Assembly: GCA_964563615.1 (NCBI GenBank)
Contig: CAZLWF010000005.1
Location: 1 to 59,474 of the forward strand
Direction of reading: 5' to 3'
DNA from: an uncultured Candidatus Saccharibacteria bacterium
GTDB taxonomy: Bacteria > Patescibacteriota > Minisyncoccia > Phycocordibacterales > UBA9973
DNA length: 59,474 bases
The notes below the pieces were generated by a model. The model was given only the letters and a program-made list of their open reading frames with translations, was not told the origin of the DNA and searched no databases. Shown piece after piece: positions 5,225 to 55,538 of the stretch; the stretch's first letter is position 1; each line of letters opens with the position of its first letter. The position numbers and the translations under genes were made by a program.

Positions 5225-7150
5225 TCATTGCACTACCCGCTCCATACCAGAACTGAAGCTCGTGTCATTGTAGAGCGACGTGGTAAGTGCTGCCCAGGTA
5301 CTTCGTACGATCGTATTGGTATAGGCATCTGTTCCAGTGAGTACTGTCTGGAGTAGAATTTGCGGAATGCTACCAATTTGCGTCGTCGAAGGGGTTATAC
5401 CGATTTGAAATGATGCTTCCCGGAGTGGCAAGCTAATACCGGTTCCCTTGGTAACATTGCCTAATTTCCAGGTCACCGATCGAGTCGTTTCGTTGTAGGT
5501 AACAACTTCCTTTGCAGGCGAGGTCGGTCCAACAAATCTAGCATACGTAGGCAGTGTTGCAACTGCTTCAGCACCTGTTATGTCATTGACTGAGTTCGTT
5601 ACTGACCAGGTTACTGTATAGAGCGTCTCATGATCGGCTTGTGGTGGCATTGGGCCAGTGTTGGTAAATGGACCTTGGAAATGAAGCGCCTTACCGGCAA
5701 TCTGTAGATCTGAAGCGAAGATAAGCGTCTTTGATTCAGTATTCGTCACATCTGAGACCACGCCACCGAGTGATGGCTCTTTACCTTTGATCCCCACCGT
5801 AACAAGGATTTGCGGATTTGAAATATATGAACCTGAAGCATAAAGCGGCAACGGCTTAAACGAGAACGACACGGAGCCTTGCTCGCCTGGATCAATAGAA
5901 GCAAAAACACCACTTCTCGTCTTATCCCAAATAATTTTACTATTGAGCGAATCATAGAAGCCAGTCGACGTTTTGACTGTACTTTTATCATACGCATTAC
6001 CGGTTAGTGTTGCCGTCATTTCGACATCAGTTAGTCTGGTTTCTAAATTATTTTCCCAAATAATTTCTATATCTACTTCTTGATTCCCATTTAAAATATT
6101 AGTCGTACTATCTGCACCATTGACGAGAATAGATGTCGAGAGAAATGGGCGCTTGATAATAATTGTTCCGAGAAGTGATGTATAGGTTACTGCAAGCGTC
6201 GTCCGATCTGTTGCGCTTGCTTCACCAGAATACACACGGAAAGCTCTCTCTTCGCCATCTTGACCTTGGAGACTGCCGGTAATTTTTATTTCTTTTGTCA
6301 TACCTTTCCCCATATCACCAAGCTCCCACATATTGTCTCCAATAGCTGCAAGAGGTTCTGAAGTATTAACAATAAATCCCGAAGGATACTCCATTCGCAC
6401 CAGCATATTTGGTATTGGTTTTTCAGCATTGGAGAGTACTTTGATCGTCATTGTAAAGAGCTGATTTGAGGTAACTTGTTTTGGAACATCAAGCGACAGA
6501 GCAATCGGCGAGGAATTAATCGTGACCGAATACACTGTGTCTTTAACGAAAATAGCATTTGAACCTGCAACTCGATACTCGAGCGATGCTTTGACTGTCT
6601 TTTGTGTGCCTTGTTCGCCATAGAGAATAACCTTAACGCTTTGCGATGAGGTTTTGCCTGGACCCACAGTACCGAGCGTCATACGCGGCAATCTCACTTG
6701 TTCTCCATCACTACCCTCAACACTCCCTTTGGGATATGAGACCAGAAGATCAGCAAGCTCAAGGGGGACACTGTTTTTATTCGTCACTTCTATCTCAAGT
6801 GTGAGTTCATCACCACCACCGGTAAACGAGCTTCCTAAAATATTCACATCAATATTATCATTTGATACGGTATTATTGCCCCGAAGAAACGTGTAACCAG
6901 CATAAAGACCGGAGAGTACAAAAACACCTACTGAAAAGAAGAAAATAAATTTAAACATAGATGATGAAGGTTTGACTGGCATCGTTTCTGTTGCAACTGT
7001 TGACTCTTCTTTTTTCTCCCAAATTTTTGAAATCCCATAGTCACGGGGATGCAAAGTGCCACGCTTGCGTTTGCGGAGTAGGCTTTCATCTTTGCTATAG
7101 AGCCGCCGATTAAGCTCTTCGATTTGATTCGGCGCTTCATTACCGTCCAT
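5225..7150 (-). CDS. Membrane-anchored beta-rich extracellular protein (DUF11-like Ig repeats)
   Basis: 641 aa with one N-terminal TM helix followed by repeated beta-sandwich-like segments ending in W-x-(L/I)-G-x-(L/M/V). Confidence 0.6.
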   Translation of the reverse strand: MDGNEAPNQIEELNRRLYSKDESLLRKRKRGTLHPRDYGISKIWEKKEESTVATETMPVKPSSSMFKFIFFFSVGVFVLSGLYAGYTFLRGNNTVSNDNIDVNILGSSFTGGGDELTLEIEVTNKNSVPLELADLLVSYPKGSVEGSDGEQVRLPRMTLGTVGPGKTSSQSVKVILYGEQGTQKTVKASLEYRVAGSNAIFVKDTVYSVTINSSPIALSLDVPKQVTSNQLFTMTIKVLSNAEKPIPNMLVRMEYPSGFIVNTSEPLAAIGDNMWELGDMGKGMTKEIKITGSLQGQDGEERAFRVYSGEASATDRTTLAVTYTSLLGTIIIKRPFLSTSILVNGADSTTNILNGNQEVDIEIIWENNLETRLTDVEMTATLTGNAYDKSTVKTSTGFYDSLNSKIIWDKTRSGVFASIDPGEQGSVSFSFKPLPLYASGSYISNPQILVTVGIKGKEPSLGGVVSDVTNTESKTLIFASDLQIAGKALHFQGPFTNTGPMPPQADHETLYTVTWSVTNSVNDITGAEAVATLPTYARFVGPTSPAKEVVTYNETTRSVTWKLGNVTKGTGISLPLREASFQIGITPSTTQIGSIPQILLQTVLTGTDAYTNTIVRSTWAALTTSLYNDTSFSSGMERVVQ

Positions 7151-7173
7151 ATCGATAAGTATAGCAGATGGAT

Positions 7174-7752
7174 TTAGAGATTGCTCTCCTTGAGTGCTCG
7201 ATTGATTTCAAATAGTATTGTTTTCTTTTCAAGCTTTTTGTAAATTTCACTTCCTGGATCTATCGGAGCTTCCAAATAGTCAGCAAAGGTATCAGTCCGA
7301 CCAATATAGCCTAAGTTGTGAAGAATTCTAAGTACGAGCACAAGCTCAATAGTTTCATAGTTTTCTTGTATACGATCATGAGTGAGATGTGTTACGGTCG
7401 CAATTAGATCGTCAAAAATTTCAGGAATTGGCTCTTCACCTACGCATAACCGCTCGAGAAGCTTGGCAACACTTGCGATAATTTTTAAGCTTTGAGGATT
7501 GAGACGCAATCCATATGACTGTATCGCCACCCCTGATGTTACGCGCCACAACTCTTTACCTTGGACAAGATCAACTGTCGCATGTGAGAAATCTTGGAGA
7601 CCAAAACGAAGTTTGGACTTTCCGAGCCGTATCCCCTGCGCATGCGCATAGACAAGCCCAAGTTCGCGGGTATAGAGTGAAAGCATTTTGTTTGCTTCGC
7701 CGACATTGCGGCTCCCTATAACAAATGCTTCGCTGTGATAAATGTGGTTCAT
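7174..7752 (-). CDS. recO: DNA repair protein RecO (short form)
   Basis: GEANKMLSLYTRELGLVYAHAQGIRLGKSKL is a RecO N-terminal OB-fold pattern. No zinc-finger cysteines are present. Confidence 0.85.
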   Translation of the reverse strand: MNHIYHSEAFVIGSRNVGEANKMLSLYTRELGLVYAHAQGIRLGKSKLRFGLQDFSHATVDLVQGKELWRVTSGVAIQSYGLRLNPQSLKIIASVAKLLERLCVGEEPIPEIFDDLIATVTHLTHDRIQENYETIELVLVLRILHNLGYIGRTDTFADYLEAPIDPGSEIYKKLEKKTILFEINRALKESNL

Positions 7753-7753
7753 A

Positions 7754-8680
7754 TCAGTTTATTTCTTCTAAACCTAAAGCCTGTCGCATGTACATGTCTT
7801 TCTCTTCTTCATCATTACTTTGAAAATATGAAAGAACAGGGGAAAGATTATAGTCTTTACCGTGATTTCTTTCATGTATATATGAACCTAAAGTTGCCAA
7901 TACTCGCAGAGACCCTGGTCCCCAAATTTCATCTATTACCTTAAGGTACAGGATTGAACTTTCAAAATAACTTCGTTTCATGTTTTCCCATACATTCTTG
8001 GCAGATTCTTTCTTGACATCAGAAATTCCTTTTATTATTTGATCTAAAATTGGCTGGTAATAGTCATATCCAAAGGGTAAAGTTTGGTACTCCTCATATT
8101 CATCGTCCATTACAAATAATTCTTCTTTCAATTCCTTCTTGTGTATTAACCCAATTTCTCTTACTATCCCCTGCAAGATTATTTCATTTAGTCCAGTAAA
8201 ATGCGATCCTCCACCGATAGCAGAAGTTTTTTCGATACCATTTTCACTAATTGGATATCGATCTTTTTCAAAATGCCATTTTAATGACGGCACTTTATGT
8301 CCCATTTCATGGAGCAATACTTCAAACAATTGAATTCTATTAGGAAACTGATCTGACGCAATAAGTATTTCTTGGGTGTCAGTCATCTCATCTATATATG
8401 CATCTGATGAATCTTCTCCGTTTAGAATATCAATCGCATCGCGAGGGACAAAATGGATAGAATCTATTTCTATCTGCGAAAATGACATACCTATTTTTTC
8501 ACATTCGTTTTTATAATATCTATTGAAAAGTTCAATGGCCTTTAGTTCGTCTGGATTTTTCTCAAATTCATAGTCATTTAGCCAACCTCTCAAATATTCA
8601 CGATTGTTTTTTAACTCAGCGTAAAAATGTTCAACAGTTTCTTTTTTTATGCCTTTGCCAATGTAATCAGGGGTTCTCAT
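7754..8680 (-). CDS. Hypothetical protein with HExxH, putative zinc metallopeptidase
   Basis: LLHEMGH followed downstream by GLNE. Confidence 0.5.
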   Translation of the reverse strand: MRTPDYIGKGIKKETVEHFYAELKNNREYLRGWLNDYEFEKNPDELKAIELFNRYYKNECEKIGMSFSQIEIDSIHFVPRDAIDILNGEDSSDAYIDEMTDTQEILIASDQFPNRIQLFEVLLHEMGHKVPSLKWHFEKDRYPISENGIEKTSAIGGGSHFTGLNEIILQGIVREIGLIHKKELKEELFVMDDEYEEYQTLPFGYDYYQPILDQIIKGISDVKKESAKNVWENMKRSYFESSILYLKVIDEIWGPGSLRVLATLGSYIHERNHGKDYNLSPVLSYFQSNDEEEKDMYMRQALGLEEIN

Positions 8681-10538: not shown

Positions 10539-13500
10539 CACTCTATGTTAATCGAAATAATAATTTCTCCAATATTTACTTCTTGCCCATTATTATCTGC
10601 AAACGTCACTTCTTTTGCCAAGACTGTCTTCTTAAAATCATTCATAAACGGCGTGACGAGTGATTCTGCTCCAGGTGAAATACTGAGAGATATGACATCA
10701 CTAGGAGTTAATCCTGCTTGCTTACGCATGTCTTGCACAGCTCGGACAAATTCTCGATACTCGCCTTCGAGCTTAAGCTCCGGTGTAATACGCTCATCAA
10801 AAACAATCACTGGACCTTTTTCAACAGCTTTGACATTGAGCTCATCTTTGATGAGTTCTTTGTAGTAATCACTTAGGTCTTCGGTGACGAAGAAAAATGC
10901 AAGTGGCTGGCGCACAGGGATATTAGCTTTCTTCCTGAGTGCATTTCCGACCGTGCACAAATCCCGAACAACCTGCATATTTTCTATTAACTGTTTACTA
11001 TTCACTATTGACTGTGTTCCTGGCCAATCACTTAGATGCACACTTTCTACATCTGCCTCATGTCGTAATCGTTGCCATATATCTTCCGCAGCAAATGGTG
11101 CAAATGGCGCCATCACTTGGGCGAGAATTTTTAATACTGTATACAATGTTTGCTTTGCATCAGTATCACCATCTTTGATGCGGTCTCTCGAACGACGTAG
11201 ATACCATGTCGAAAGATCACCAATAAAGTCTCGAATTGCCCGTACAGGTTCAAGGGCTTTGTATGCATCGAGCTTCTCGGTTGTGAGGACGATGACTTGA
11301 TCAAGCCGAGCCAGTACCCATTGATCAAGAATGTTTTTACTTTCGACTTTCGACGTATCACTTTCGACTATTGTATCCCTATACAACTCATAGAACGATA
11401 AAATATTATACAAGAGCCCAAATACTTGACGTTGAAGTTCGCCAACTGTCCGTTCATCGAAATTCTTGGACTCACCCGGCTGGTTGACTGAGTACATCCA
11501 CAAACGAAGCGTATCGACGCCGTATTTCTCAATCATCGTCCAGGGGTCAACAACATTCCCGATTGATTTAGACATTTTCTTGCCGTCTTTATCGAGAATA
11601 TGTCCGAGACAAATAACATTCTTGTACGCCAAACCACGATCCATGAGCACACCAACAGCGAGGAGTGTATAGAACCAGCCTCGTGTTTGATCGATCGCTT
11701 CAGAAATAAAGTCTGCTGGGTACCCTGGACCTTCGACAAAATCTTTATTCTCAAATGGATAATGATCCTGTGCGAACGGCATAGCACCTGAGTCAAACCA
11801 GACATCCATGACTTCTTTTACCCGACGGAATTCCTTGCCATCTCGCTCCAGTACGATTTCATCAATAAATGGACGATGCGGATCAAGCTCATAATTTACA
11901 TTATGCGGCAGTGGCACAAATGGAAGTTCCCTAACTTCTGCATTATTTAAATATTTAAATTCCTTTTTGTCCGTAACAAGATCGAGTGATCGATCTGGAT
12001 CTAAACCTTGCGCACCTGCAACCAAAAGCCATGATGGACCACCATGCGTCACCAGAAGAATATTTTTATTTTGATATTTTGATTCCAGCTCATACAAGAG
12101 ATCCATTGATCGCTTTTTTACATCCATATACGATTCCCCATCTGGATACGCAAATGAGAAATTCTCTGCATTTTTCGGAAGCGTCGTATGATATTCTATC
12201 CAGGTCTTGAAACCAGCATTACCAACTTTGAATTCGCGAAGTCGATCATCAATTATGATACTTTCTTTTGGGAGATCAAGAATCTCACGAATGATTTCTG
12301 TTGTTTCTTCTGTACGAACGAATGGTGAAGCAATGATAAGCTCAATATTTTGCTTTTTTAATTCTTCCGCGCTCACTCGCACCTGTTCTCTACCCTTCTC
12401 TGTGAGATGATCCGGCGCATCTACAATCTCGCTAATAAATCCACCTAGGTTGTGCTCTGCTTCCCCGTGTCGCATCACGAAATACGTATTACCTGACTTT
12501 TTCGTATATTTCTTGAGGGTTTCAAATGAATCGACAACCAATACCTCTCCGTCAGTTGCTACCCAAATCGGTAGTGGTGTTCCCCAGTACCGTTCACGAG
12601 AAATCGCCCAATCTTTCACTTCACGGATCCACTCACCAAAGCGCCCTTCTTTAGTATGATCTGGTTCCCAATTGATCTTATGATTTTCAGCAACAAGCGT
12701 ATCGCGAAGCGTTGACATGCGGATATACCAAGAATCTCGAGCATAATAGATAAGCGCAGTTTTACAACGCCAACAATGTGGATATGAGTGAGTGTATTTT
12801 TCTTTCTTGAAAAGTAATCCTCGATGTGCCAAATCTTTGATAACATCGACTGCTGTCTCTTCATCTTTGACAAATTTCCCTTCGAGGAAATCAGTGCCTT
12901 TGACGAAATGACCTGCCTCATCAACGAGGTGGAATTTAGGTAGTCCTACTTTTGTACCGAGCTCGAAATCTTCTTGCCCATACATGACTGCAGTGTGCAC
13001 AATGCCTGTACCATCAGTCGTGGTCACAAAATCTGCTGGATAGACCTTGTACGCATTTACTAATTTTTCATCACCAGCATCAAGATTTTGAAGATATGGG
13101 TAGAGAGGTTCATATTGCATACCTACCATTTCATTACCCGTATGCTCTGCAATAATTTCATGCGGTTCCGCAATAACAGATAAACGTTCTTTTGCTAACA
13201 CCAAAATTTCATCTCCGACTTTGACTTCTACATACACCACATCTTTACCCACCGCCAAACCAACATTGCCAGGCAGTGTCCATGGGGTCGTTGTCCATGC
13301 AAGAAAATAACCATTGTCTGTTCCGACAATTTTAAACTTTGCAGTTACTGAAAGGTCGGTATCATCTTGATACCCTTGGGCAAGTTCGTGTGACGAAAGC
13401 GCTGTCCCACAACGAGGACACCACGGTACGACTTTGTAGTCTTTGTAGAGCAAGCCTTTGTCATGTACTTTTGAGACAATATTCCAAATTGATTCGATAA

Positions 13501-18431: not shown

Positions 18432-19598
18432 TTATTTTTGGCGTAATACTTTATCGATCTTCCGCGCTATTGTTATCATGTCTTTCTCCTTTTTGCCCCG
18501 TGTCGTCTCAGCTGGAGTACCGAGTCGTATGCCAGAGGGATCTACAGGACTTCGAGTATCAAATGGAATGGTATTTTTGTTAACAATGATACCTACTTGT
18601 TCCAATCTTTCACTAGCTTCTTTACCACCAATACCTTTGCCATCCATCCATGTATCAACAAGTAGCAAGTGTGAGTCAGTACCCCCTGAAACAATTCTCC
18701 AGCCGAGCTTCCCAAGTTCATGTGAAAGTACCGATGCATTTTTGGTAACTTGCTCCGCATATTTTTTAAATGCAGGAGTTGTAGCTTCTTTAAGAGCAAC
18801 AGCAACTGCTGCAATTTGATTCATATGCGGACCACCCTGAAGACCGGGGAAAATTGCTTTATCAATTTTTTGCGAGTAGTTTAATTTAGAAAAAATAAGT
18901 GCACTCCGAGGTCCTCGAAGTGTTTTGTGGACCGTCGTTGTAACTACATCTGCATACGGAAATGGTGATGGATACACCCCACCTGCTACGAGTCCTGCAA
19001 TATGCGACATATCAACCATAAGGATAGCACCACAAGCATCGGCAATAGATCGCCACTCTTTCCAATCAACTATACGCGGATATGCTGTATAGCCAGCAAC
19101 AATGAGAGCCGGTTTTTCTTTCATTGCAATTTTTTTGAGCTCTATGTAATTTAACGTTTCTGTTTTTTTATCAACTTGGTATGGTATTTGCGTCCACCAT
19201 TTTCCAGTAACTGAAACTTTATGTCCATGGGTAAGATGCCCTCCATGAGATAGCTCCATGCCCATAATCTTACCTCTTGGGGGGACAAGAGCTATCAATA
19301 CAGCAAGATTCGCAGGCGAACCTGAAAGACCTTGAACATTGACGCTCCATTTGTTCGTTGTAAGTCCAAACAAAGAAAGTGCTCGTGCACGACATAGATC
19401 ATCGAGCTTATCCACGATTTCATTGCCACCATAGTATCGCAATTTCGAATACCCTTCAGCGTACTTGTTGGTAAGCTCTGAACCCAATGCTTCAAGCACG
19501 TCTTTCGAAACATAGTTTTCTGAGGCAATCAAATTGATCACGCTTTTTTGGCGCTTTTTTTCTGCATCGATTAATTTTTTGATTTGAATGTCTTTCAT
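18432..19598 (-). CDS. glyA: Serine hydroxymethyltransferase
   Basis: LIASEN, NKYAEGY, GGHLTHG, TTTVHKTLRGPR (PLP lysine) and SGIRLGTP. Confidence 0.96.
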   Translation of the reverse strand: MKDIQIKKLIDAEKKRQKSVINLIASENYVSKDVLEALGSELTNKYAEGYSKLRYYGGNEIVDKLDDLCRARALSLFGLTTNKWSVNVQGLSGSPANLAVLIALVPPRGKIMGMELSHGGHLTHGHKVSVTGKWWTQIPYQVDKKTETLNYIELKKIAMKEKPALIVAGYTAYPRIVDWKEWRSIADACGAILMVDMSHIAGLVAGGVYPSPFPYADVVTTTVHKTLRGPRSALIFSKLNYSQKIDKAIFPGLQGGPHMNQIAAVAVALKEATTPAFKKYAEQVTKNASVLSHELGKLGWRIVSGGTDSHLLLVDTWMDGKGIGGKEASERLEQVGIIVNKNTIPFDTRSPVDPSGIRLGTPAETTRGKKEKDMITIARKIDKVLRQK

Positions 19599-20018
19599 TT
19601 ATTTTCCAGTGCTCCCAAATCTGCCTTCACCTCGGACAGATTCGGAGAGTGTATCAGTTTCTTCCAATGTTGCAATTGTGACAGGAAAAAGTATAAGCTG
19701 GGCTATTTTATCTCCTACCTCTACTGTGTATGCTTGCTTGCCTACATTCATAAGCTGGACGTTGTATTCACCTCGATAGCCTGCATCATACACTCCACCC
19801 ATAGTGTGGAGGCCTTTCTTTGCCATACCGCTTTTGTCTTTGACGATGGCAGCATACCCTTCTGGAAACTCTAATGCAAATCCAACAAAAAATATGTGTT
19901 GATCACCTGGCGATAGAGTTATTGATTCTCGGGAATACATATCAAGACCAACATCTCCTGGATGGCTATAGCTCGGTAGCTTTGTATCTTCGTAAAGCTT
20001 TTTTACTTTTATCTGCAT
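19599..20018 (-). CDS. dut: dUTP diphosphatase (trimeric)
   Basis: GDVGLD, KSG, GGVYDAGYRGE, IAQL and RGEGRFGSTG. Start set at MQIKVKK. Confidence 0.93.
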   Translation of the reverse strand: MQIKVKKLYEDTKLPSYSHPGDVGLDMYSRESITLSPGDQHIFFVGFALEFPEGYAAIVKDKSGMAKKGLHTMGGVYDAGYRGEYNVQLMNVGKQAYTVEVGDKIAQLILFPVTIATLEETDTLSESVRGEGRFGSTGK

Positions 20019-20054
20019 ATCCCATCTTAGCAATAAAATTGGCATTTACTAGAT

Positions 20055-20083
20055 TTGACAATTTGCCTTACTAAGAGTATGGT
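20055..20083 (+). promoter_or_regulatory. Sigma70-type promoter of thyA
   Basis: TTGACA-17 nt-TATGGT. Confidence 0.6.
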
Positions 20084-20099
20084 GAGGAAAATTCATTCC

Positions 20100-21071
20100 A
20101 TGAGAAAAAATAATGAAATCCCGGTTCAATACAAACCGTATTCAGAAAGAACACCAGACAACCAATACGAAAATCTACTTCATGATTTACTAAATCATCC
20201 TAATCGCGAGAAAAAAACAAGTTATCATTCACAAGCGAAGGAAAATGTAGGATCAGGGCATATGTACTGCTTTGAACTTCCATGTCGGATATTACAATTT
20301 CATACCTCAAATGGCGCACCAATAACAACAGTTCGTGACTTGGGTAACTTTGGAATATTCGGGGCTATTGGAGAAATGATTGGCTTCATAAATGGCGCAC
20401 GGACATTAAAAGAACTTATGGATTTTGGATGCCCTGAATCGTTCTGGGCATCATCGGTTACAAAAGAAAAGTGTAAAGTCTGGGGATTAGAAGAAGGCGA
20501 TTTAGGATTAGGATCATACGGTCCTAATTTTACCGCTCTTCCCACACACAATGGAGATTTATTTAATCAAATCACTGCCTTAAATAACCAGATTAAAAAC
20601 TATCCATCAGCACGAACAAATCTAATCAGTTCTTGGTACACCCCATTTGATATGGGAGATAAAACACAAAATTCTCCTAGAAAGGTTGTTGTTGCTCCAT
20701 GTCATGGAAATATGATCCAGTTTGATGTAATGGATAATAGAAACATGCATATGACCGTATACCAACGCTCTGCAGATTCCCCACTTGGTTTGGTATATAA
20801 TCTTACTCAATGGTACGCATTTGGCATGATGGTCGCCTATATCGGAAATTTAAATTTTGTGTGGTATACCCATGTACTACCCAATCCTCAAATTTACGAC
20901 ATCCAATTTGAAGCAGTGAAAGAATTATTGAGTAGAAAACCAGGCAAGTTGCCAAGCTTATATTTACGACCTAAAAACAAGGTGGAAAATCTAATTGATT
21001 TTCGTAAAGAAGATTTTGTAATTGAGGATTATTACCCTCAGCAAAAAATGAAGGTTCCATCAGTTGTTTAA
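20100..21071 (+). CDS. thyA: Thymidylate synthase (ThyA fold, divergent)
   Basis: APCH catalytic Cys, YQRSAD, GLVYN and QIY. Start set at MRKNNE. Confidence 0.85.
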   Translation: MRKNNEIPVQYKPYSERTPDNQYENLLHDLLNHPNREKKTSYHSQAKENVGSGHMYCFELPCRILQFHTSNGAPITTVRDLGNFGIFGAIGEMIGFINGARTLKELMDFGCPESFWASSVTKEKCKVWGLEEGDLGLGSYGPNFTALPTHNGDLFNQITALNNQIKNYPSARTNLISSWYTPFDMGDKTQNSPRKVVVAPCHGNMIQFDVMDNRNMHMTVYQRSADSPLGLVYNLTQWYAFGMMVAYIGNLNFVWYTHVLPNPQIYDIQFEAVKELLSRKPGKLPSLYLRPKNKVENLIDFRKEDFVIEDYYPQQKMKVPSVV

Positions 21072-21086
21072 ATATTTGCAATCCTC

Positions 21087-21113
21087 AAAGTCCAGCTAAA
21101 CTGGACTTTTTTT
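21087..21113 (+). terminator. Intrinsic terminator after thyA
   Basis: aaagtccag-ctaaa-ctggacttt followed by further T's. Confidence 0.75.
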
Positions 21114-21146
21114 ATTTATCAGGTATTGTATAGGAAAATACTAACT

Positions 21147-21575
21147 ATGAACTATGTAGACATCAATAACGTGCGCAGTGAAGAAATGCGCCAAAAATGG
21201 CAATCAATTATTGATAGAGGTATAGATCCATTCGATATACAGTATGTCGAAGAGTATGTTGGCCCTGTTATACTCCAGAGCGATCATTGGTATGTATTTC
21301 AAAATAATTATCCATATAAGGGCGCCTTGTATCAGCCCGTTTTGGTTTCAAAAAAATTTTATAGTGATGATGATGAAATGAGCGATGAAGAATGGCTTGA
21401 TCTCCGAAAGATAAAGAAACAGATGAAAGAATTGCTCGGTATTAAGGGCGGAGGATTCATCATGCGTTTCGGTGACACTAGTCTTTCTGGAGGAAGCGTT
21501 ATACATCTTCATGCGCAGCTTATTGTTCCAAAAGAAAACGAAGCGGTTGCTGCATGGTTTGGTTCAAAAAAATAA
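21147..21575 (+). CDS. HIT-superfamily nucleotide hydrolase/transferase
   Basis: NNYPY and GGSVIHLHAQL (HxHxQ variant). Start set at MNYVDIN. Confidence 0.7.
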   Translation: MNYVDINNVRSEEMRQKWQSIIDRGIDPFDIQYVEEYVGPVILQSDHWYVFQNNYPYKGALYQPVLVSKKFYSDDDEMSDEEWLDLRKIKKQMKELLGIKGGGFIMRFGDTSLSGGSVIHLHAQLIVPKENEAVAAWFGSKK

Positions 21576-21586
21576 AAACTGCAATT

Positions 21587-21620
21587 AAAAAATCCCGAAG
21601 AGTATTCTTCGGGATTATTT
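21587..21620. terminator. Bidirectional intrinsic terminator
   Basis: aatcccgaaga-gtat-tcttcgggatt between convergent genes. Confidence 0.8.
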
Positions 21621-22461
21621 ATTTTACTCGTACAATTTCTACACTAGCTGCTTTTAAATCTTCCTGAGCGTTTTGATTTGCATATCCCTCTTTAAAGAAC
21701 AGTTTTCTGATGCCTATTTTGGCAATCATTTGCGCACATGGAAGACACGGAAATGTTGTTACATACATATCTCTACCCCTAAGAACTATTCCCTTCTGTA
21801 ATGCTTGTGCAAAAAGAGCTTTCTCAGCATGTATTGCCCCACATACTTCAGGTTTTTCTCCTGGTTTCATAATAAGTCGCATGTCACCATTTACATAAGG
21901 TTCCATACTTGTTGGCATATGTTCATTAAATGCTACAAGCAATCCTTCTTCGGTTTGTATAGCAGCTCCAACTTGTCGCCAAAAATCAGAACTCTTGCTA
22001 GCTGTTTTTTCTGCCTCAAGAAGCATCTGCCGATCAAACTCCTTAGTAGAGATTTCATAGTCTGCAATCACTTCTTTTGGAATTATGGTATTCCTCCAGT
22101 CCCACCGCAAGAAAGCATTGTCATACTCAACATGCGTATTTGGAAGTTTTTTTGATAATGCGTGTGAAATATCTTCATCTGGCATCACAATTATGGAGAA
22201 TTCATCCAAAAATTTTCCGTCCTGGTCAAAATTTTCAATAACTTTAATACTGGAACTAGGAAATTTTATATGGAGATATGCACCAACTTCCTCTGCAGAA
22301 ATACAACGGATATCGCGACTTAACTGGTCAGCAATGACTGCGTCAATTTCCTTACAACCATTTGCGGTAAGCAATACAATATCAGCAGACTGATTACGTT
22401 CCAAAAAGGATATATACCCGCGATGAATCACTGGCATATACAAAACAATTCCCTTTGTCAT
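21619..22461 (-). CDS. dCMP-deaminase-like protein with extra N-terminal domain
   Basis: C-terminal RQVGA, IHAE and TFPCLPCA zinc-deaminase motifs. The N-terminal region contains PVIHRGY. Confidence 0.8.
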   Translation of the reverse strand: MTKGIVLYMPVIHRGYISFLERNQSADIVLLTANGCKEIDAVIADQLSRDIRCISAEEVGAYLHIKFPSSSIKVIENFDQDGKFLDEFSIIVMPDEDISHALSKKLPNTHVEYDNAFLRWDWRNTIIPKEVIADYEISTKEFDRQMLLEAEKTASKSSDFWRQVGAAIQTEEGLLVAFNEHMPTSMEPYVNGDMRLIMKPGEKPEVCGAIHAEKALFAQALQKGIVLRGRDMYVTTFPCLPCAQMIAKIGIRKLFFKEGYANQNAQEDLKAASVEIVRVK

Positions 22462-23099
22462 TTTCCACCTCCTTTCTTTTTTCTATCTTTAAAATGCTCC
22501 TCCACAACTGTAACAATTTTTTTACCCAGCTCTTCTGAAGCATCCATTGTCAGCGTTCGTATTCTGGCTGTTGTTGATGTTTCTGCCTGTGGTGGAAGGA
22601 CAATAATATTGTCAACATAATTTTTGTAAGCTTTCTTCATGTCTTGAATGAAGGTAGGTCGCCTGCTTTGTGTTGTTTTCGAGAATACCAGAATATTTGG
22701 TTTTATTTTCTTTATCAACTTGAATGGGTCATCTTTGACATTTCGTACAGTAATAATATTAACTGATCTATTTCTGATCAAAATATCAATTCGCTCTTCT
22801 AATCCAACAATTGGCCGTTTTGGCCCCTTATCTTTTTTTACCAATTCATCTGAATCAACCGCAAGAATCAGTACATCACAAAACTCTTTCGCTTTTTCAA
22901 GATACTTGGCATGACCAACATGAAACATGTCGTACACTCCACTTGTATAGCCAACCTTTAGCCCTTCTAACTTAAGGACACCAACAACCCAAGCAAGATC
23001 TTCATTATCAAGGATGATGCGGTCTTCTTTATTGATTCCACCATCCATAATTTTTAGTATTTTAACTCTTCTTGTTCTTTTCGTAGTTTCCATTTTCAA
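22458..23099 (-). CDS. Cytidylyltransferase-like (HIGH nucleotidyltransferase; RfaE-II/TagD-like)
   Basis: TSGVYDMFHVGHAKYL, LAVDSD, KGPKRPI and STT. ATGA overlap with the deaminase gene. Confidence 0.85.
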   Translation of the reverse strand: MKMETTKRTRRVKILKIMDGGINKEDRIILDNEDLAWVVGVLKLEGLKVGYTSGVYDMFHVGHAKYLEKAKEFCDVLILAVDSDELVKKDKGPKRPIVGLEERIDILIRNRSVNIITVRNVKDDPFKLIKKIKPNILVFSKTTQSRRPTFIQDMKKAYKNYVDNIIVLPPQAETSTTARIRTLTMDASEELGKKIVTVVEEHFKDRKKKGGGK

Positions 23100-23127
23100 A
23101 GAATTTTTTTGTTAGCAATTACCTCAC

Positions 23128-23183
23128 AGCCTAAACTTTTTTAAAACATTGTCAATTGACAAAATAAATTTTTAGAGTAGAGT
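23128..23183. promoter_or_regulatory. Back-to-back divergent sigma70 promoters
   Basis: The palindrome TTGTCAATTGACAA gives TTGACA on both strands. It is followed 16 nt later by TAGAGT (+, folA) and TAGGCT (-, cytidylyltransferase). Confidence 0.55.
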
Positions 23184-23201
23184 TATAAAAAACAATTTTC
23201 T

Positions 23202-23699
23202 ATGATAACAATCATTGCAGCAGTACAAAAAAAGGACAATGGTATAGGCAAGAACAATGACGTGCTTTTCCATATACGACCAGACTTTATTCGGATGAAA
23301 AAGATGACTATGGGTCATCCAGTTACCATGGGACGTCTGACGTATGAATCCTTACCTGAGAAATTTCGACCATTACCTGGCCGGACAAACATAGTTATTA
23401 CCAGAAAAATGGACTACCAAACTCCGGAAGGTATCATCGTCACACATTCCCTATCAGAAGCGACTGAGCGAGCATCAGCCATTGATCCTGATAATTTTAT
23501 TTTAGGAGGTGGAGAAATATACAAAGAAGCACTCAAGTTAGGTATCGTTGACCGACTAGAGCTCACGATTATTGACGGCAATAAAGAAGCTGATACTTTC
23601 TTTCCAGATTGGAACGGTTTTGGGAAAACGACAAATCGCATACAAGGCTACAGCGAGGAGGAAGGAGTATATTACGAATTCGTGACAATTGAAAAATAG
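23202..23699 (+). CDS. folA: Dihydrofolate reductase
   Basis: IIAA, GIGKNN, MGRLTYESL, RPLPGRTNIVIT, GGGEIY and ADTFFP. Confidence 0.95.
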   Translation: MITIIAAVQKKDNGIGKNNDVLFHIRPDFIRMKKMTMGHPVTMGRLTYESLPEKFRPLPGRTNIVITRKMDYQTPEGIIVTHSLSEATERASAIDPDNFILGGGEIYKEALKLGIVDRLELTIIDGNKEADTFFPDWNGFGKTTNRIQGYSEEEGVYYEFVTIEK

Positions 23700-23700
23700 A

Positions 23701-23736
23701 AAAACCGACATCATGATACATGATGTCGGTTTATTT
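23701..23736. terminator. Bidirectional intrinsic terminator
   Basis: aaaccgacatcatg-ata-catgatgtcggttt. Confidence 0.8.
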
Positions 23737-24301
23737 ATTCCACTTCGTATGGTGTATTCTTCTTATGCAAATGAGTAAAATATTGCTTTGCAATCTCATC
23801 AACCCAGGGTACTACCTGTGAAATATCAGTGTAGTACTGGAAACGATAATGTTTGTTAATATGTCCAAAATTTCTGACATACGCAGATTTACGCATTGCT
23901 TCAGGGCGTCCAGATTCAGAAATAATCAAAATTGGTATTTTGTTCCCATACATAATCTGCATGCCAATTTGTATCTCCGGTATGGTGACAACAGCGACCA
24001 ATATATTTGCCGTATCAATTGCCTTGTGAATTTTTTCTATATGCTCATTTTCAATAGCTTTAATTTCCTTACTGAGTTGAGTATGGAATGAGTCATTACG
24101 CATATGAATCTTTTCTTGATCATAATCTACCGGCAATCCAGCAGCAAAAAGTAGAGTTTCAATTTTCTGATTACTATCTTCAACTTCAATAATCTCATAA
24201 TTACGTTCAATCAACATTATTTTTAATTGCTGAAGCTGATTTTTAAAATACTCGGGAATATGCTGGGTCGCATGAATGAGGTATATTTTTATTTTTTTCA
24301 T
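23735..24301 (-). CDS. Hypothetical protein, possibly nucleoside 2-deoxyribosyltransferase/TIR-like fold
   Basis: KIYLIHA...IDTANILVAVVTIPEIQIGMQIMYG...PILII resembles the NDT/DNPH1 pattern (recalled, not searched). Confidence 0.4.
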   Translation of the reverse strand: MKKIKIYLIHATQHIPEYFKNQLQQLKIMLIERNYEIIEVEDSNQKIETLLFAAGLPVDYDQEKIHMRNDSFHTQLSKEIKAIENEHIEKIHKAIDTANILVAVVTIPEIQIGMQIMYGNKIPILIISESGRPEAMRKSAYVRNFGHINKHYRFQYYTDISQVVPWVDEIAKQYFTHLHKKNTPYEVE

Positions 24302-24350
24302 GGTCGAGACAATTTTGTTCGGGAACAGTATAGCATCTACGGTTTCGAGT

Positions 24351-24390
24351 GCAAGAAAAAATCGCCCCTTAGGGGGTGATTTTTTCTTGC
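24351..24390 (-). terminator. Intrinsic terminator after rplK
   Basis: gcaagaaaaaatcgcccc-tta-gggggtgattttttcttgc, a long inverted repeat with GU pairs. Confidence 0.8.
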
Positions 24391-24397
24391 ACGTTGA

Positions 24398-53831: not shown

Positions 53832-54341
53832 TTATTGACTAATAACTTCATTGTAAACCTGTTCTGCTATTTTCTCAGGGCTATTTTTTGTTGTATCTAT
53901 TTCCACAAAGGCAGAAAAGTCTTTAGACTGTTGCATTTCGTAGGTATAATCAAATCGTTCTCGATTCGGCATTTTATTCCTTTCTTCTCCTCTCTTTTGA
54001 ATTCTCTCCCACAATACATCCTTTGGAGCAGAAAGATAGTACATAAAAAAAGGCACATTACATTTAGTAACAATCTCCTTCAATTTTTTATCTCGTTCTT
54101 TTGTAATACCACTATCGATAACAATACTAACTCCATTAGAAAGAAATGATTCAGTGAGTGAAAAAATTACGTCAAAAGCTATAACATTATACTCATCCGT
54201 TGCTTTTGACTTTGTAATTAAATTTCGCACTAAATCAAGACCTACAAATGCTGTATTTTCCATTTTTTCTTTCAGTAAGTTACTTACTGTTGACTTACCT
54301 GCTCCTCGTGCTCCATCTAAGATAATAAGTTTTGCTTTCAT
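53832..54341 (-). CDS. P-loop kinase (AAA_33/nucleotide-kinase-like)
   Basis: LIILDGARGAGKST, IVIDS and LWERIQKR. Confidence 0.8.
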   Translation of the reverse strand: MKAKLIILDGARGAGKSTVSNLLKEKMENTAFVGLDLVRNLITKSKATDEYNVIAFDVIFSLTESFLSNGVSIVIDSGITKERDKKLKEIVTKCNVPFFMYYLSAPKDVLWERIQKRGEERNKMPNRERFDYTYEMQQSKDFSAFVEIDTTKNSPEKIAEQVYNEVISQ

Positions 54342-54965: not shown

Positions 54966-55538
54966 CTAAAAAGTCCTTTCGGTTTTTCCATAAGACTTTT
55001 GTTTTATATAAATCATTGTATCGTATCCACGTGTTACCTGATCACTTATATCAACACCAAGACTAACCAGAAAATCAAAAAGTTCTTTTTGCACTATTTC
55101 TGCATCAGCATCTTTGTCCATAATTTTTTCTGCTTCTATAAATGAACCCAAATCTCTAACTTCATCTAAACAAATTTCCATATTCTGATATGTTGTTTTG
55201 ATTCTTTCTTTGTGAACATGAACTACTTCTTTGTATCCCATGACGAGGAGAGCTTGTTTGAATTCTTTTGAATCAGTGATCTCTGTTTCATGCTCAATAG
55301 CATCAAATTCATTCTTATTGGGTTGCTTGAGGGTAAAGATAAATTTTCCATTTGATTCCCGAATTCGTAAAATATTTTTACCCGCCTGAAATTCATCATA
55401 TGCGCCGTAGTTTTGATCTACAAAAGTAACATCGTCTTGAACAACTGATGCAGATAAGATGCACCCAAGCTCTTGTAGCTTTTCTATAATTTTCTCTTTA
55501 TCTCTTAATTTTGCTTTTACTTCAATTTCTTTACGCAT
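54966..55538 (-). CDS. CYTH-domain protein (class IV adenylate cyclase/CyaB-like)
   Basis: EIEVK (ExExK), LRIRE, FTLK, EHETE, KER and LGSFIEAE. Confidence 0.85.
   Translation of the reverse strand: MRKEIEVKAKLRDKEKIIEKLQELGCILSASVVQDDVTFVDQNYGAYDEFQAGKNILRIRESNGKFIFTLKQPNKNEFDAIEHETEITDSKEFKQALLVMGYKEVVHVHKERIKTTYQNMEICLDEVRDLGSFIEAEKIMDKDADAEIVQKELFDFLVSLGVDISDQVTRGYDTMIYIKQKSYGKTERTF

Follow-up and report, generated by a model that had tools for sequence, protein, structure and literature searches.

Few pathways have been studied as thoroughly as thymidylate synthesis, a classic drug target. In canonical thyA-folA gene sets, thymidylate synthase (ThyA) and dihydrofolate reductase (DHFR) are clustered with serine hydroxymethyltransferase (SHMT), dUTPase and a dCMP-type deaminase (dut, tmk, glyA and comEB or dcd; cd-td-frd in phage T4). 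In the bifunctional proteins of protozoa and plants, DHFR is fused to thymidylate synthase (TS) itself. Known dCMP deaminases are under allosteric control by dCTP and dTTP, and we know of no step in thymidylate synthesis that is carried out by a HIT enzyme. Here we describe a locus at positions 18432-24301 of a 59,474-nucleotide stretch of DNA (hereafter the window; contig CAZLWF010000005.1 of assembly GCA_964563615.1, from an uncultured Candidatus Saccharibacteria bacterium), in which a divergent ThyA and a DHFR are accompanied by a predicted HIT-fold protein, a nucleotidyltransferase (NT) and a two-domain deaminase.

The way in which TS holds its substrate serves as the reference for this divergent ThyA. 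The phosphate of dUMP is clamped by four arginines, Arg21, Arg126′, Arg127′ and Arg166, while His207 contacts the ribose (PMC6005164, Table 2). Loss of a clamp arginine in nature has been published once, for Arg127′ of a Vibrio TS (PMC6005164).

Results

A conserved five-gene module

The genes for the divergent ThyA, DHFR, HIT, NT and the deaminase form a conserved module that is co-inherited and whose members stay adjacent despite rearrangements, and the window carries a complete, typical copy of it. We followed the module through 401 Patescibacteria genomes using a profile of the HIT protein, with full-length matches at E < 1e-20 and the loci checked by tblastn. The profile matched 16 of the 401 genomes, from 13 GTDB families, and gave no match in two genomes of the window's family and five of its order. 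In all 16 genomes, the divergent ThyA, DHFR, an N-terminally extended deaminase and, where the locus reaches that far, NT are encoded within ~3 kb of HIT. A profile of the deaminase N-domain (its N-terminal 135 residues) recovered 15 of the 401 genomes, all of them among the HIT-positive 16; in the sixteenth, the deaminase gene is cut short by the end of the 2-kb contig that carries the locus. NT adjoins the deaminase in every locus long enough to show it, and DHFR is present in all loci of the window type.

Homologues of HIT at 51-96% identity lie in the constant order argS-(dut)-thyA>HIT> <deaminase<NT folA> <rplK (arrowheads give orientation). These genomes are syntenic throughout, so the shared gene order proves little there. 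Across the 16 genomes, gene orders differ (thyA-folA-HIT, folA-thyA-HIT, all genes on one strand), and strand and flanks vary. In L015, a locus on a 1.08-Mb contig whose HIT protein is 34% identical to that of the window, the flanks are different, with topA upstream and tmk downstream, and thyA, HIT, a 298-aa deaminase, NT, a DHFR-type reductase and dut lie together. The gene tmk adjoins the module in five loci, and no transporter or nuclease is conserved within it across the loci compared. Because the five genes co-occur in 13 families with shuffled gene order, chance juxtaposition is excluded. Of the 401 genomes, 195 have ThyA-family genes, a minority of which are accompanied by the module. 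At 16 canonical thyA-folA loci (with tmk, dut, glyA or a short ComEB-type deaminase), one of them from the window's family, neither NT nor HIT was found. Full-text literature searches returned no description of the module. In one locus (L046), a gene of the F420-0:gamma-glutamyl-ligase family (11149-11901, + strand; PF01996, 123.5 bits) stands inside the module between NT and DHFR; by its family match it could be a folate-related glutamyl ligase.

The original prediction, made from the window sequence, had described a self-contained thymidylate cluster with three extra genes, for a HIT protein, a cytidylyltransferase-like protein and an 'NDT-like' protein. The core genes of this cluster are indeed conserved, and its layout is partly peculiar to the window genome, with glyA and dut loosely attached. 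HIT and NT are always found with the divergent ThyA across the 13 families, so the objection that the extra genes might not travel with thyA fails for these two; the 'NDT-like' ORF occurs with thyA in 0 of ~35 related loci.

A divergent ThyA clade with an altered phosphate site

The window ThyA gene (ORF 20055-21071, + strand) probably starts at the ATG at 20100, which lies behind a GAGGAAA and a promoter-like site at 20055-20083. Its product scores 133 bits against PF00303 (cut-off 24.3) and falls under every NCBIfam ThyA equivalog cut-off (112.7 versus 327 and 96.3 versus 108.35). The protein retains the catalytic Cys146, His147, Arg166-Ser167 and Asp169, the uracil-specifying Asn177 and the folate residues Glu58, Trp80 and Tyr94, together with Arg126 and Tyr209. 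The complete four-arginine phosphate clamp and His207 are not found in it: Arg21 is replaced by Tyr (as placed by the MAFFT column), Arg127 by Thr and His207 by Gln.

This pattern extends through the module. Cys146, His147, Arg166, Ser167, Asp169, Glu58, Trp80 and Tyr94 are retained in 17 of 17 module ThyAs, and Arg126 (Lys in one) and Asn177 in 16 each. Arg21 is present in none of the 17, compared with 14 of 16 canonical ThyAs, and Arg127 is gone in 11 of the 17, where Thr or Asn takes its place. The branch that splits the module ThyAs from the canonical ones, E. coli ThyA included, has a support of 100/100. We found no second ThyA and no ThyX in the window genome assembly, and with both absent we rejected the idea that either of them is the 'real' synthase of this organism. 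Its obligatory DHFR partner and its Asn177 favour reading the divergent ThyA as a genuine dUMP-type methylase that works reductively, and this speaks against a role in making a modified base.

A predicted HIT-fold protein linked to DHFR

The ORF downstream of the ThyA gene (21126-21575, + strand; likely start at the ATG at 21147) gave no sequence match in Pfam (PF01230 included), PHROG or the PDB. An AlphaFold2 (AF2) model built on 12 homologues, with a predicted local distance difference test score (pLDDT) of 87.6, was matched by Foldseek at a probability of 1.0 to structures of Hint (ecHinT, hHint1), Fhit and Ap4A-phosphorylase-type (Rv2613c) proteins, among them 3n1s, 1kpa, 2fit and 3ano, with target-normalised TM-scores of up to 0.8. 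On this model the ORF encodes a predicted HIT-fold enzyme, a nucleotide hydrolase or transferase, and the fold match bears out the name 'HIT protein' that had been given to it from sequence. PF01230 does recognise some of its orthologues, scoring 22.2 bits (cut-off 21.5) for the protein of L015 and 47.6 bits for a protein of the second variant described below, and the HIT profile reached PDB sequences at E values of at least 0.014.

The window protein carries the motif H127-L-H129-A-Q131 (H-L-H-A-Q-L-I), in which Gln stands at the third His of His-x-His-x-His-x-x. Orthologues have either Gln or His at this position, and H-x-H-x-Q is the commonest form among family members. Among HIT enzymes, this form is usual for the transferase/phosphorylase branch.

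The partner reductase is encoded by folA (23202-23699, + strand; PF00186, 132.6 bits), with a promoter-like site at 23156-23183. In six genomes (L021, L022, L026, L028, L029 and L030), DHFR and HIT form one protein of 306-331 aa with no internal stop.

A two-domain deaminase coupled to a nucleotidyltransferase

Convergent with HIT lies the gene of a 280-aa deaminase (21619-22461, - strand), in which PF00383 covers residues 142-256. The AF2 model of this protein has a pLDDT of 86 and comprises two domains. The C-terminal domain (residues ~142-280) contains the zinc motifs HAE (AIHAE) and PCxxC (FPCLPC), and its best Foldseek matches are the dCMP deaminases of S. mutans, S-TIM5, T4 and human (2hvw, 4p9c, 1vq2 and 2w4l), with 5c2o also high. 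Its zinc motifs and fold are those of a dCMP deaminase; its length departs from the single-domain form (~150 aa), and its score of 43 bits lies far under the equivalog cut-off of 219 (TIGR02571). We rejected a DcdV-like defence reading of this protein, as the match was confined to the stretch around the zinc motif and did not extend to the kinase-like N-domain of that family (NF041025/PADLOC dCTPase, residues 207-272; 62 bits versus 400).

The extra domain occupies residues 1-135 (22057-22461, - strand) and is predicted to be alpha/beta. Its profile found no match among PDB sequences, and Foldseek of the two-domain model returned deaminase matches only. When compared with the NT family by hhalign, the domain gave weak alignments (E 0.023 and 0.033) that are in register, with PVxHxGY (PVIHRGY in the window) on HxGH, so that a degenerate HxGY stands at the position of the catalytic HxGH. 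The domain is possibly a degenerate cytidylyltransferase-like docking domain, a tentative assignment whose main reason is a second form of the locus, described below, in which a tandem NT is found with a short deaminase.

NT itself (22458-23099, - strand) is an HldC/ECT-like HIGH-motif nucleotidyltransferase with the motifs FHVGH and ETSTT. It scores 49.6 bits against PF01467 (cut-off 21), 94 bits against rfaE domain II/HldC (TIGR02199; cut-off 181.5) and 58.7 bits against human ECT (3elb). Membership of the cytidylyltransferase family, as had been proposed, is thereby borne out by the PF01467 match and by the HxGH and RTxGISTT-type motifs. Its score under the HldC cut-off, and neighbours from thymidylate rather than heptose or LPS metabolism, set it apart from HldC. 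The stop codon of NT overlaps the start codon of the deaminase gene (ATGA), with a GGAGGTGG Shine-Dalgarno sequence just upstream, an arrangement that marks the two genes as translationally coupled.

Variants in other genomes and in a phage

In four genomes (L060-L063) the trio of NT, HIT and deaminase occurs in a second variant. Here the NT either has tandem domains (395-412 aa) or is single; a canonical-looking HIT protein comes next, and then a deaminase that is either short (174 aa) or N-terminally extended (302 aa). Directly beside them is encoded a ThyA-family protein of ~500 aa, composed of MtrA-like, ThyA-like and PterinBD-DUF4346 parts (L060 12535-14082; L061 3028-4596; L062 10053-11561; L063 2135-3559), and there is no DHFR. 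Since NT, HIT and deaminase accompany two ThyA-family enzymes of very different build, the trio appears to serve thymidylate synthesis as such. An APH-fold kinase adjoins this locus in two of the four genomes and is not found in window-type clusters; we dropped it as a universal component of the module.

NT and the deaminase also occur on a 158-kb, 97%-complete phage contig (L081, IMGVR_UViG_3300037483_001116), where NT and an N-terminally extended deaminase (5477-6812; 35-48% identity) adjoin a Tad3 anti-Thoeris gene. No ThyA and no HIT were found in the whole record, apart from a weak Thy1 match of 25.7 bits. Phages may use the pair as a nucleotide-conversion unit that is sufficient by itself.

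A third class of ThyA in Patescibacteria lies beside DHFR without NT or HIT. These proteins are 25-30% identical to the divergent ThyA and keep the Arg21 equivalent; their genes lie near 7000-8200 of each locus, beside DHFR, tmk or dut (L085, L088-L094 and L096). In 9 of 12 sequences, Asp stands at the position of Asn177 (RSNDMMLGNPHD), and Pro or Val replaces His147. This is the signature of cytosine-specific ThyA-family enzymes, and by it the third class may comprise dCMP methylases or hydroxymethylases. ThyAs of intermediate score without HIT, considered as possible counter-examples to the module, were set aside as members of this separate class. Two otherwise canonical ThyAs (L067 6863-7804 and L078 6745-7731) carry His21, Lys126 and His127 in place of three clamp arginines, a further way in which the phosphate site varies naturally.

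Deoxynucleotide metabolism of the module genomes

No ribonucleotide reductase (class I/II, PF02867; class III, PF13597) was found in the 645-kb, 86%-complete window assembly (G000), nor in G256, a 100%-complete genome of the window's family. The window lineage is probably wholly dependent on salvaged deoxynucleotides, judging from these gene contents. Ribonucleotide reductase is present in 13 of the 16 module genomes.

Of the 16 module genomes, one has a dCTP deaminase (Dcd) over the cut-off, versus 8 of 16 canonical ones, and a short ComEB-type dCMP deaminase is found at several of the remaining canonical loci. The rarity of Dcd in module genomes fits the trio as the module's own source of dUMP.

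Canonical Tmk was undetected in 6 of 16 module genomes, the window genome included, versus 2 of 16 canonical genomes. A second model returned weak P-loop candidates in the Tmk-negative genomes. In the window assembly the only Tmk-like candidate found is a generic P-loop small-molecule kinase (53832-54341, - strand; AAA_18 51.8 bits, AAA_33 50.3 bits, with weak Tmk, dNK and Zeta-toxin matches). A CYTH-domain protein is encoded near it, at 54966-55538. The Gln or His form of the HIT motif does not follow the presence of Tmk. That HIT is a phosphorylase replacing Tmk was not established, given this mismatch, the weak P-loop candidates, the window kinase and the tmk genes at five module loci.

Neighbouring genes and signals

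The window locus comprises eight non-overlapping ORFs in five orientation blocks, and all eight are present where the original prediction had placed them. Family searches (Pfam, NCBIfam) name six of them, as SHMT, dUTPase, a ThyA-family protein, the deaminase, NT and DHFR. Seven of the eight proposed identities are right, these six (the deaminase as dCMP-type, NT as cytidylyltransferase-like) and the HIT fold, and the eighth, 'NDT-like', was not confirmed. No paralogue of any of the eight genes was found within the 645-kb assembly.

Upstream of the module, glyA (18432-19598, - strand) encodes a 388-aa SHMT (PF00464, 516 bits; NF000586, 513 versus a cut-off of 335), and dut (19599-20045, - strand) encodes a dUTP diphosphatase (NF001862, 118.7 bits versus a cut-off of 103) that probably starts at the ATG at 20018, giving ~139 aa like its relatives. 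Both are ordinary enzymes and loosely associated neighbours outside the conserved core, adjoining the module in 4 (glyA) and 6 (dut) of 22 loci.

Terminator-like hairpins stand at the unit boundaries, one on the + strand 3′ of the divergent ThyA gene (21087-21109), bidirectional ones that separate the convergent HIT and deaminase genes (21591-21616) and folA from the ORF beyond it (23702-23732), and one at 24349-24392. The region holds 13 terminator-like sites, against 5.6 ± 2.7 expected.

The last ORF of the locus (23735-24301, - strand, 188 aa) is the one that had been called 'NDT-like'. It gave no match in Pfam (PF05014 included, at E up to 10), PHROG, PADLOC or PDB sequences, and it has no homologue in an index of 5.8 billion proteins. 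A phmmer search of 1.84 billion representatives returned its own fragment and a single 144-aa protein (P0013) at 37% identity. The two have in common an N-terminal MKIKI(Y/L)LIH strand and an (A)D/N-I-(V/L)-x-A-(V/L)...(E/Q)-(V/I)-G motif, whose (E/Q) position is Glu in P0013 and Gln in the window protein; together they look like a rare small Rossmann-like family. We rejected a nucleoside 2-deoxyribosyltransferase (PF05014): no sequence similarity to the family was detected, the motif resemblance is by eye, and Gln stands at the catalytic Glu of GT..E.G. The ORF sits in a ~660-bp insertion between folA and rplK, which abut each other in relatives, and it is present in none of the ~35 related loci. 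It is an unrelated insertion specific to the window and lies outside the module.

Discussion

The module is a conserved, uncharacterised extension of the thymidylate pathway. Our favoured explanation, which we hold at slightly better than even confidence, is that NT, the deaminase and HIT form a dUMP-supply arm that works via a pyrophosphate-linked deoxypyrimidine intermediate. NT, docked to the deaminase via its extra domain, would transfer a deoxycytidylyl group, probably from dCTP, onto a phosphate acceptor. The deaminase would then turn C to U on the pyrophosphate-linked species or immediately after it, and HIT would cleave the link to give a monophosphate, before or after methylation. The divergent ThyA and DHFR, with SHMT, would finish the cycle by reductive methylation to thymidylate.

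Several points weigh against this supply arm. The substrates of NT and HIT cannot be read from their sequences, and little ties the deaminase N-domain to the cytidylyltransferase fold (hhalign E values of 0.02-0.03 and no match among PDB sequences). The phage contig suggests that NT and the deaminase can work as a pair without HIT. With no ribonucleotide reductase in G000 or G256, dCTP would have to be salvaged, and it looks wasteful to go by way of dCTP at all. As for the altered phosphate site, Arg21 may have been lost just once in the past, and not by repeated adaptation, since the module ThyAs are a single clade, and the Vibrio TS that naturally lacks Arg127′ still uses dUMP, at lower affinity (PMC6005164).

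A more far-reaching scheme, which we regard as unlikely, would carry the conjugate through the whole pathway. C would become U and then T on dCDP-X or Np2dC, the divergent ThyA would methylate the conjugate in an opened phosphate pocket, and HIT, acting last, would release dTMP by hydrolysis or dTDP by phosphorolysis. This would make sense of Arg21 being absent from all 17 module ThyAs, and Arg127 from 11 of them, while the catalytic residues are intact, of the place of HIT within the thyA-folA operon and its six fusions to DHFR, of H-x-H-x-Q as the commonest HIT motif form, and of the more frequent failure to detect canonical Tmk (6 of 16 versus 2 of 16 genomes). However, tmk adjoins the module in five loci, the choice of Gln or His in HIT is independent of Tmk, generic P-loop kinases such as that at 53832-54341 of the window could stand in for Tmk, the phage pair has neither HIT nor ThyA, and TS working on dUMP tolerates the loss of a clamp arginine (PMC6005164). 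If true, it would be an unknown 'masked nucleotide' form of the textbook pathway, in which phosphoanhydride energy is saved and free dUMP and dUTP are kept low. A regulatory reading, which we consider decidedly unlikely, would leave the deaminase, ThyA and DHFR with textbook chemistry on free dCMP and dUMP and give the N-domain and NT the task of setting the dC:dT balance, either as dCTP/dTTP sensors or by producing a dinucleotide signal for HIT to degrade. In its favour are the high rank of the allosterically controlled dCMP deaminases 2hvw and 5c2o among the fold matches, the degenerate HxGY of the N-domain, and the example of DcdV, a partially matching anti-phage deaminase in which a nucleotide-binding domain is likewise joined to a deaminase. 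Yet NT, with its intact HxGH and ISTT-like motif, looks catalytic, DHFR-HIT fusions and the strict co-inheritance of five genes would be unusual for a purely regulatory pair, and the altered phosphate site of ThyA would be left unexplained.

The original prediction had offered two ideas of its own. One was a scavenging module, in which HIT and a reverse-running NT would free dCMP or dUMP from host conjugates such as CDP-alcohols; we now find it highly improbable. The window genome, without ribonucleotide reductase, must salvage deoxynucleotides, and HIT enzymes, to which the fold match points, cleave NMP-X conjugates. But 13 of the 16 module genomes have ribonucleotide reductase, the module has no conserved transporter or nuclease, and the NT-deaminase coupling suggests that it is the product of NT, rather than an import, that gets deaminated. 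Specific support is missing as well, since known NTs of the cytidylyltransferase family build pyrophosphate conjugates rather than cleave them. The other idea was a modified pyrimidine for DNA. ThyA-family enzymes and NDT-like hydrolases cooperate in some modified-base and nucleoside-antibiotic pathways, and the window ThyA is divergent; but the retained Asn177 and Cys146 and the obligatory, always present DHFR fit a methyl transfer that yields dihydrofolate, tmk adjoins the module in five loci, the divergent ThyA is the sole thymidylate synthase of its genome, and the 'NDT-like' ORF, an orphan, does not belong to the module. We judge this idea, even when taken together with a chance juxtaposition of housekeeping genes, which co-occurrence in 13 families with shuffled order excludes, to be the least probable of all.

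Whatever the exact chemistry, a ThyA clade that in 13 families of ultra-small bacteria is never without NT, a two-domain deaminase and HIT implies a step, an intermediate or a control that is missing from the textbook. CPR (candidate phyla radiation) symbionts depend on their hosts for nucleotides, and knowledge of the module would improve their metabolic models. The phage copy of the NT-deaminase pair further suggests a role in virus-host nucleotide conflicts.

None of the closest known systems combines the parts of the module. Canonical thyA-folA sets share with it the clustering of ThyA, DHFR, SHMT, dUTPase and a dCMP-type deaminase, with catalytic residues present, and the module differs from them by NT, HIT, the extra domain of the deaminase and the Arg21-less ThyA clade. 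The bifunctional DHFR-TS proteins likewise fuse DHFR to an enzyme of the thymidylate pathway, whereas in the module the fusion partner is HIT, not TS. HldC/RfaE domain II and ECT (Pcyt2) have HxGH and ISTT-type motifs in common with NT, and the tandem cytidylyltransferase domains of ECT are mirrored in the second variant; NT differs in being coupled to a dCMP-type deaminase, away from any heptose or phospholipid context. The module HIT has the fold and the His-x-His of Hint, Fhit and Ap4A phosphorylase, and departs from them in its divergent sequence, its mostly Gln third residue and its link to DHFR. DcdV-type deaminases also join a nucleotide-binding N-domain to a dCMP-type deaminase, but the window N-domain is different and its context is housekeeping. 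Finally, the Vibrio parahaemolyticus (VAAP-clade) TS resembles the divergent ThyA in having naturally lost a clamp arginine as a dUMP methylase (PMC6005164); it has lost one arginine and has no accessory genes, whereas the divergent ThyA is always without Arg21, usually without Arg127 as well, and is accompanied by NT, HIT and the deaminase.

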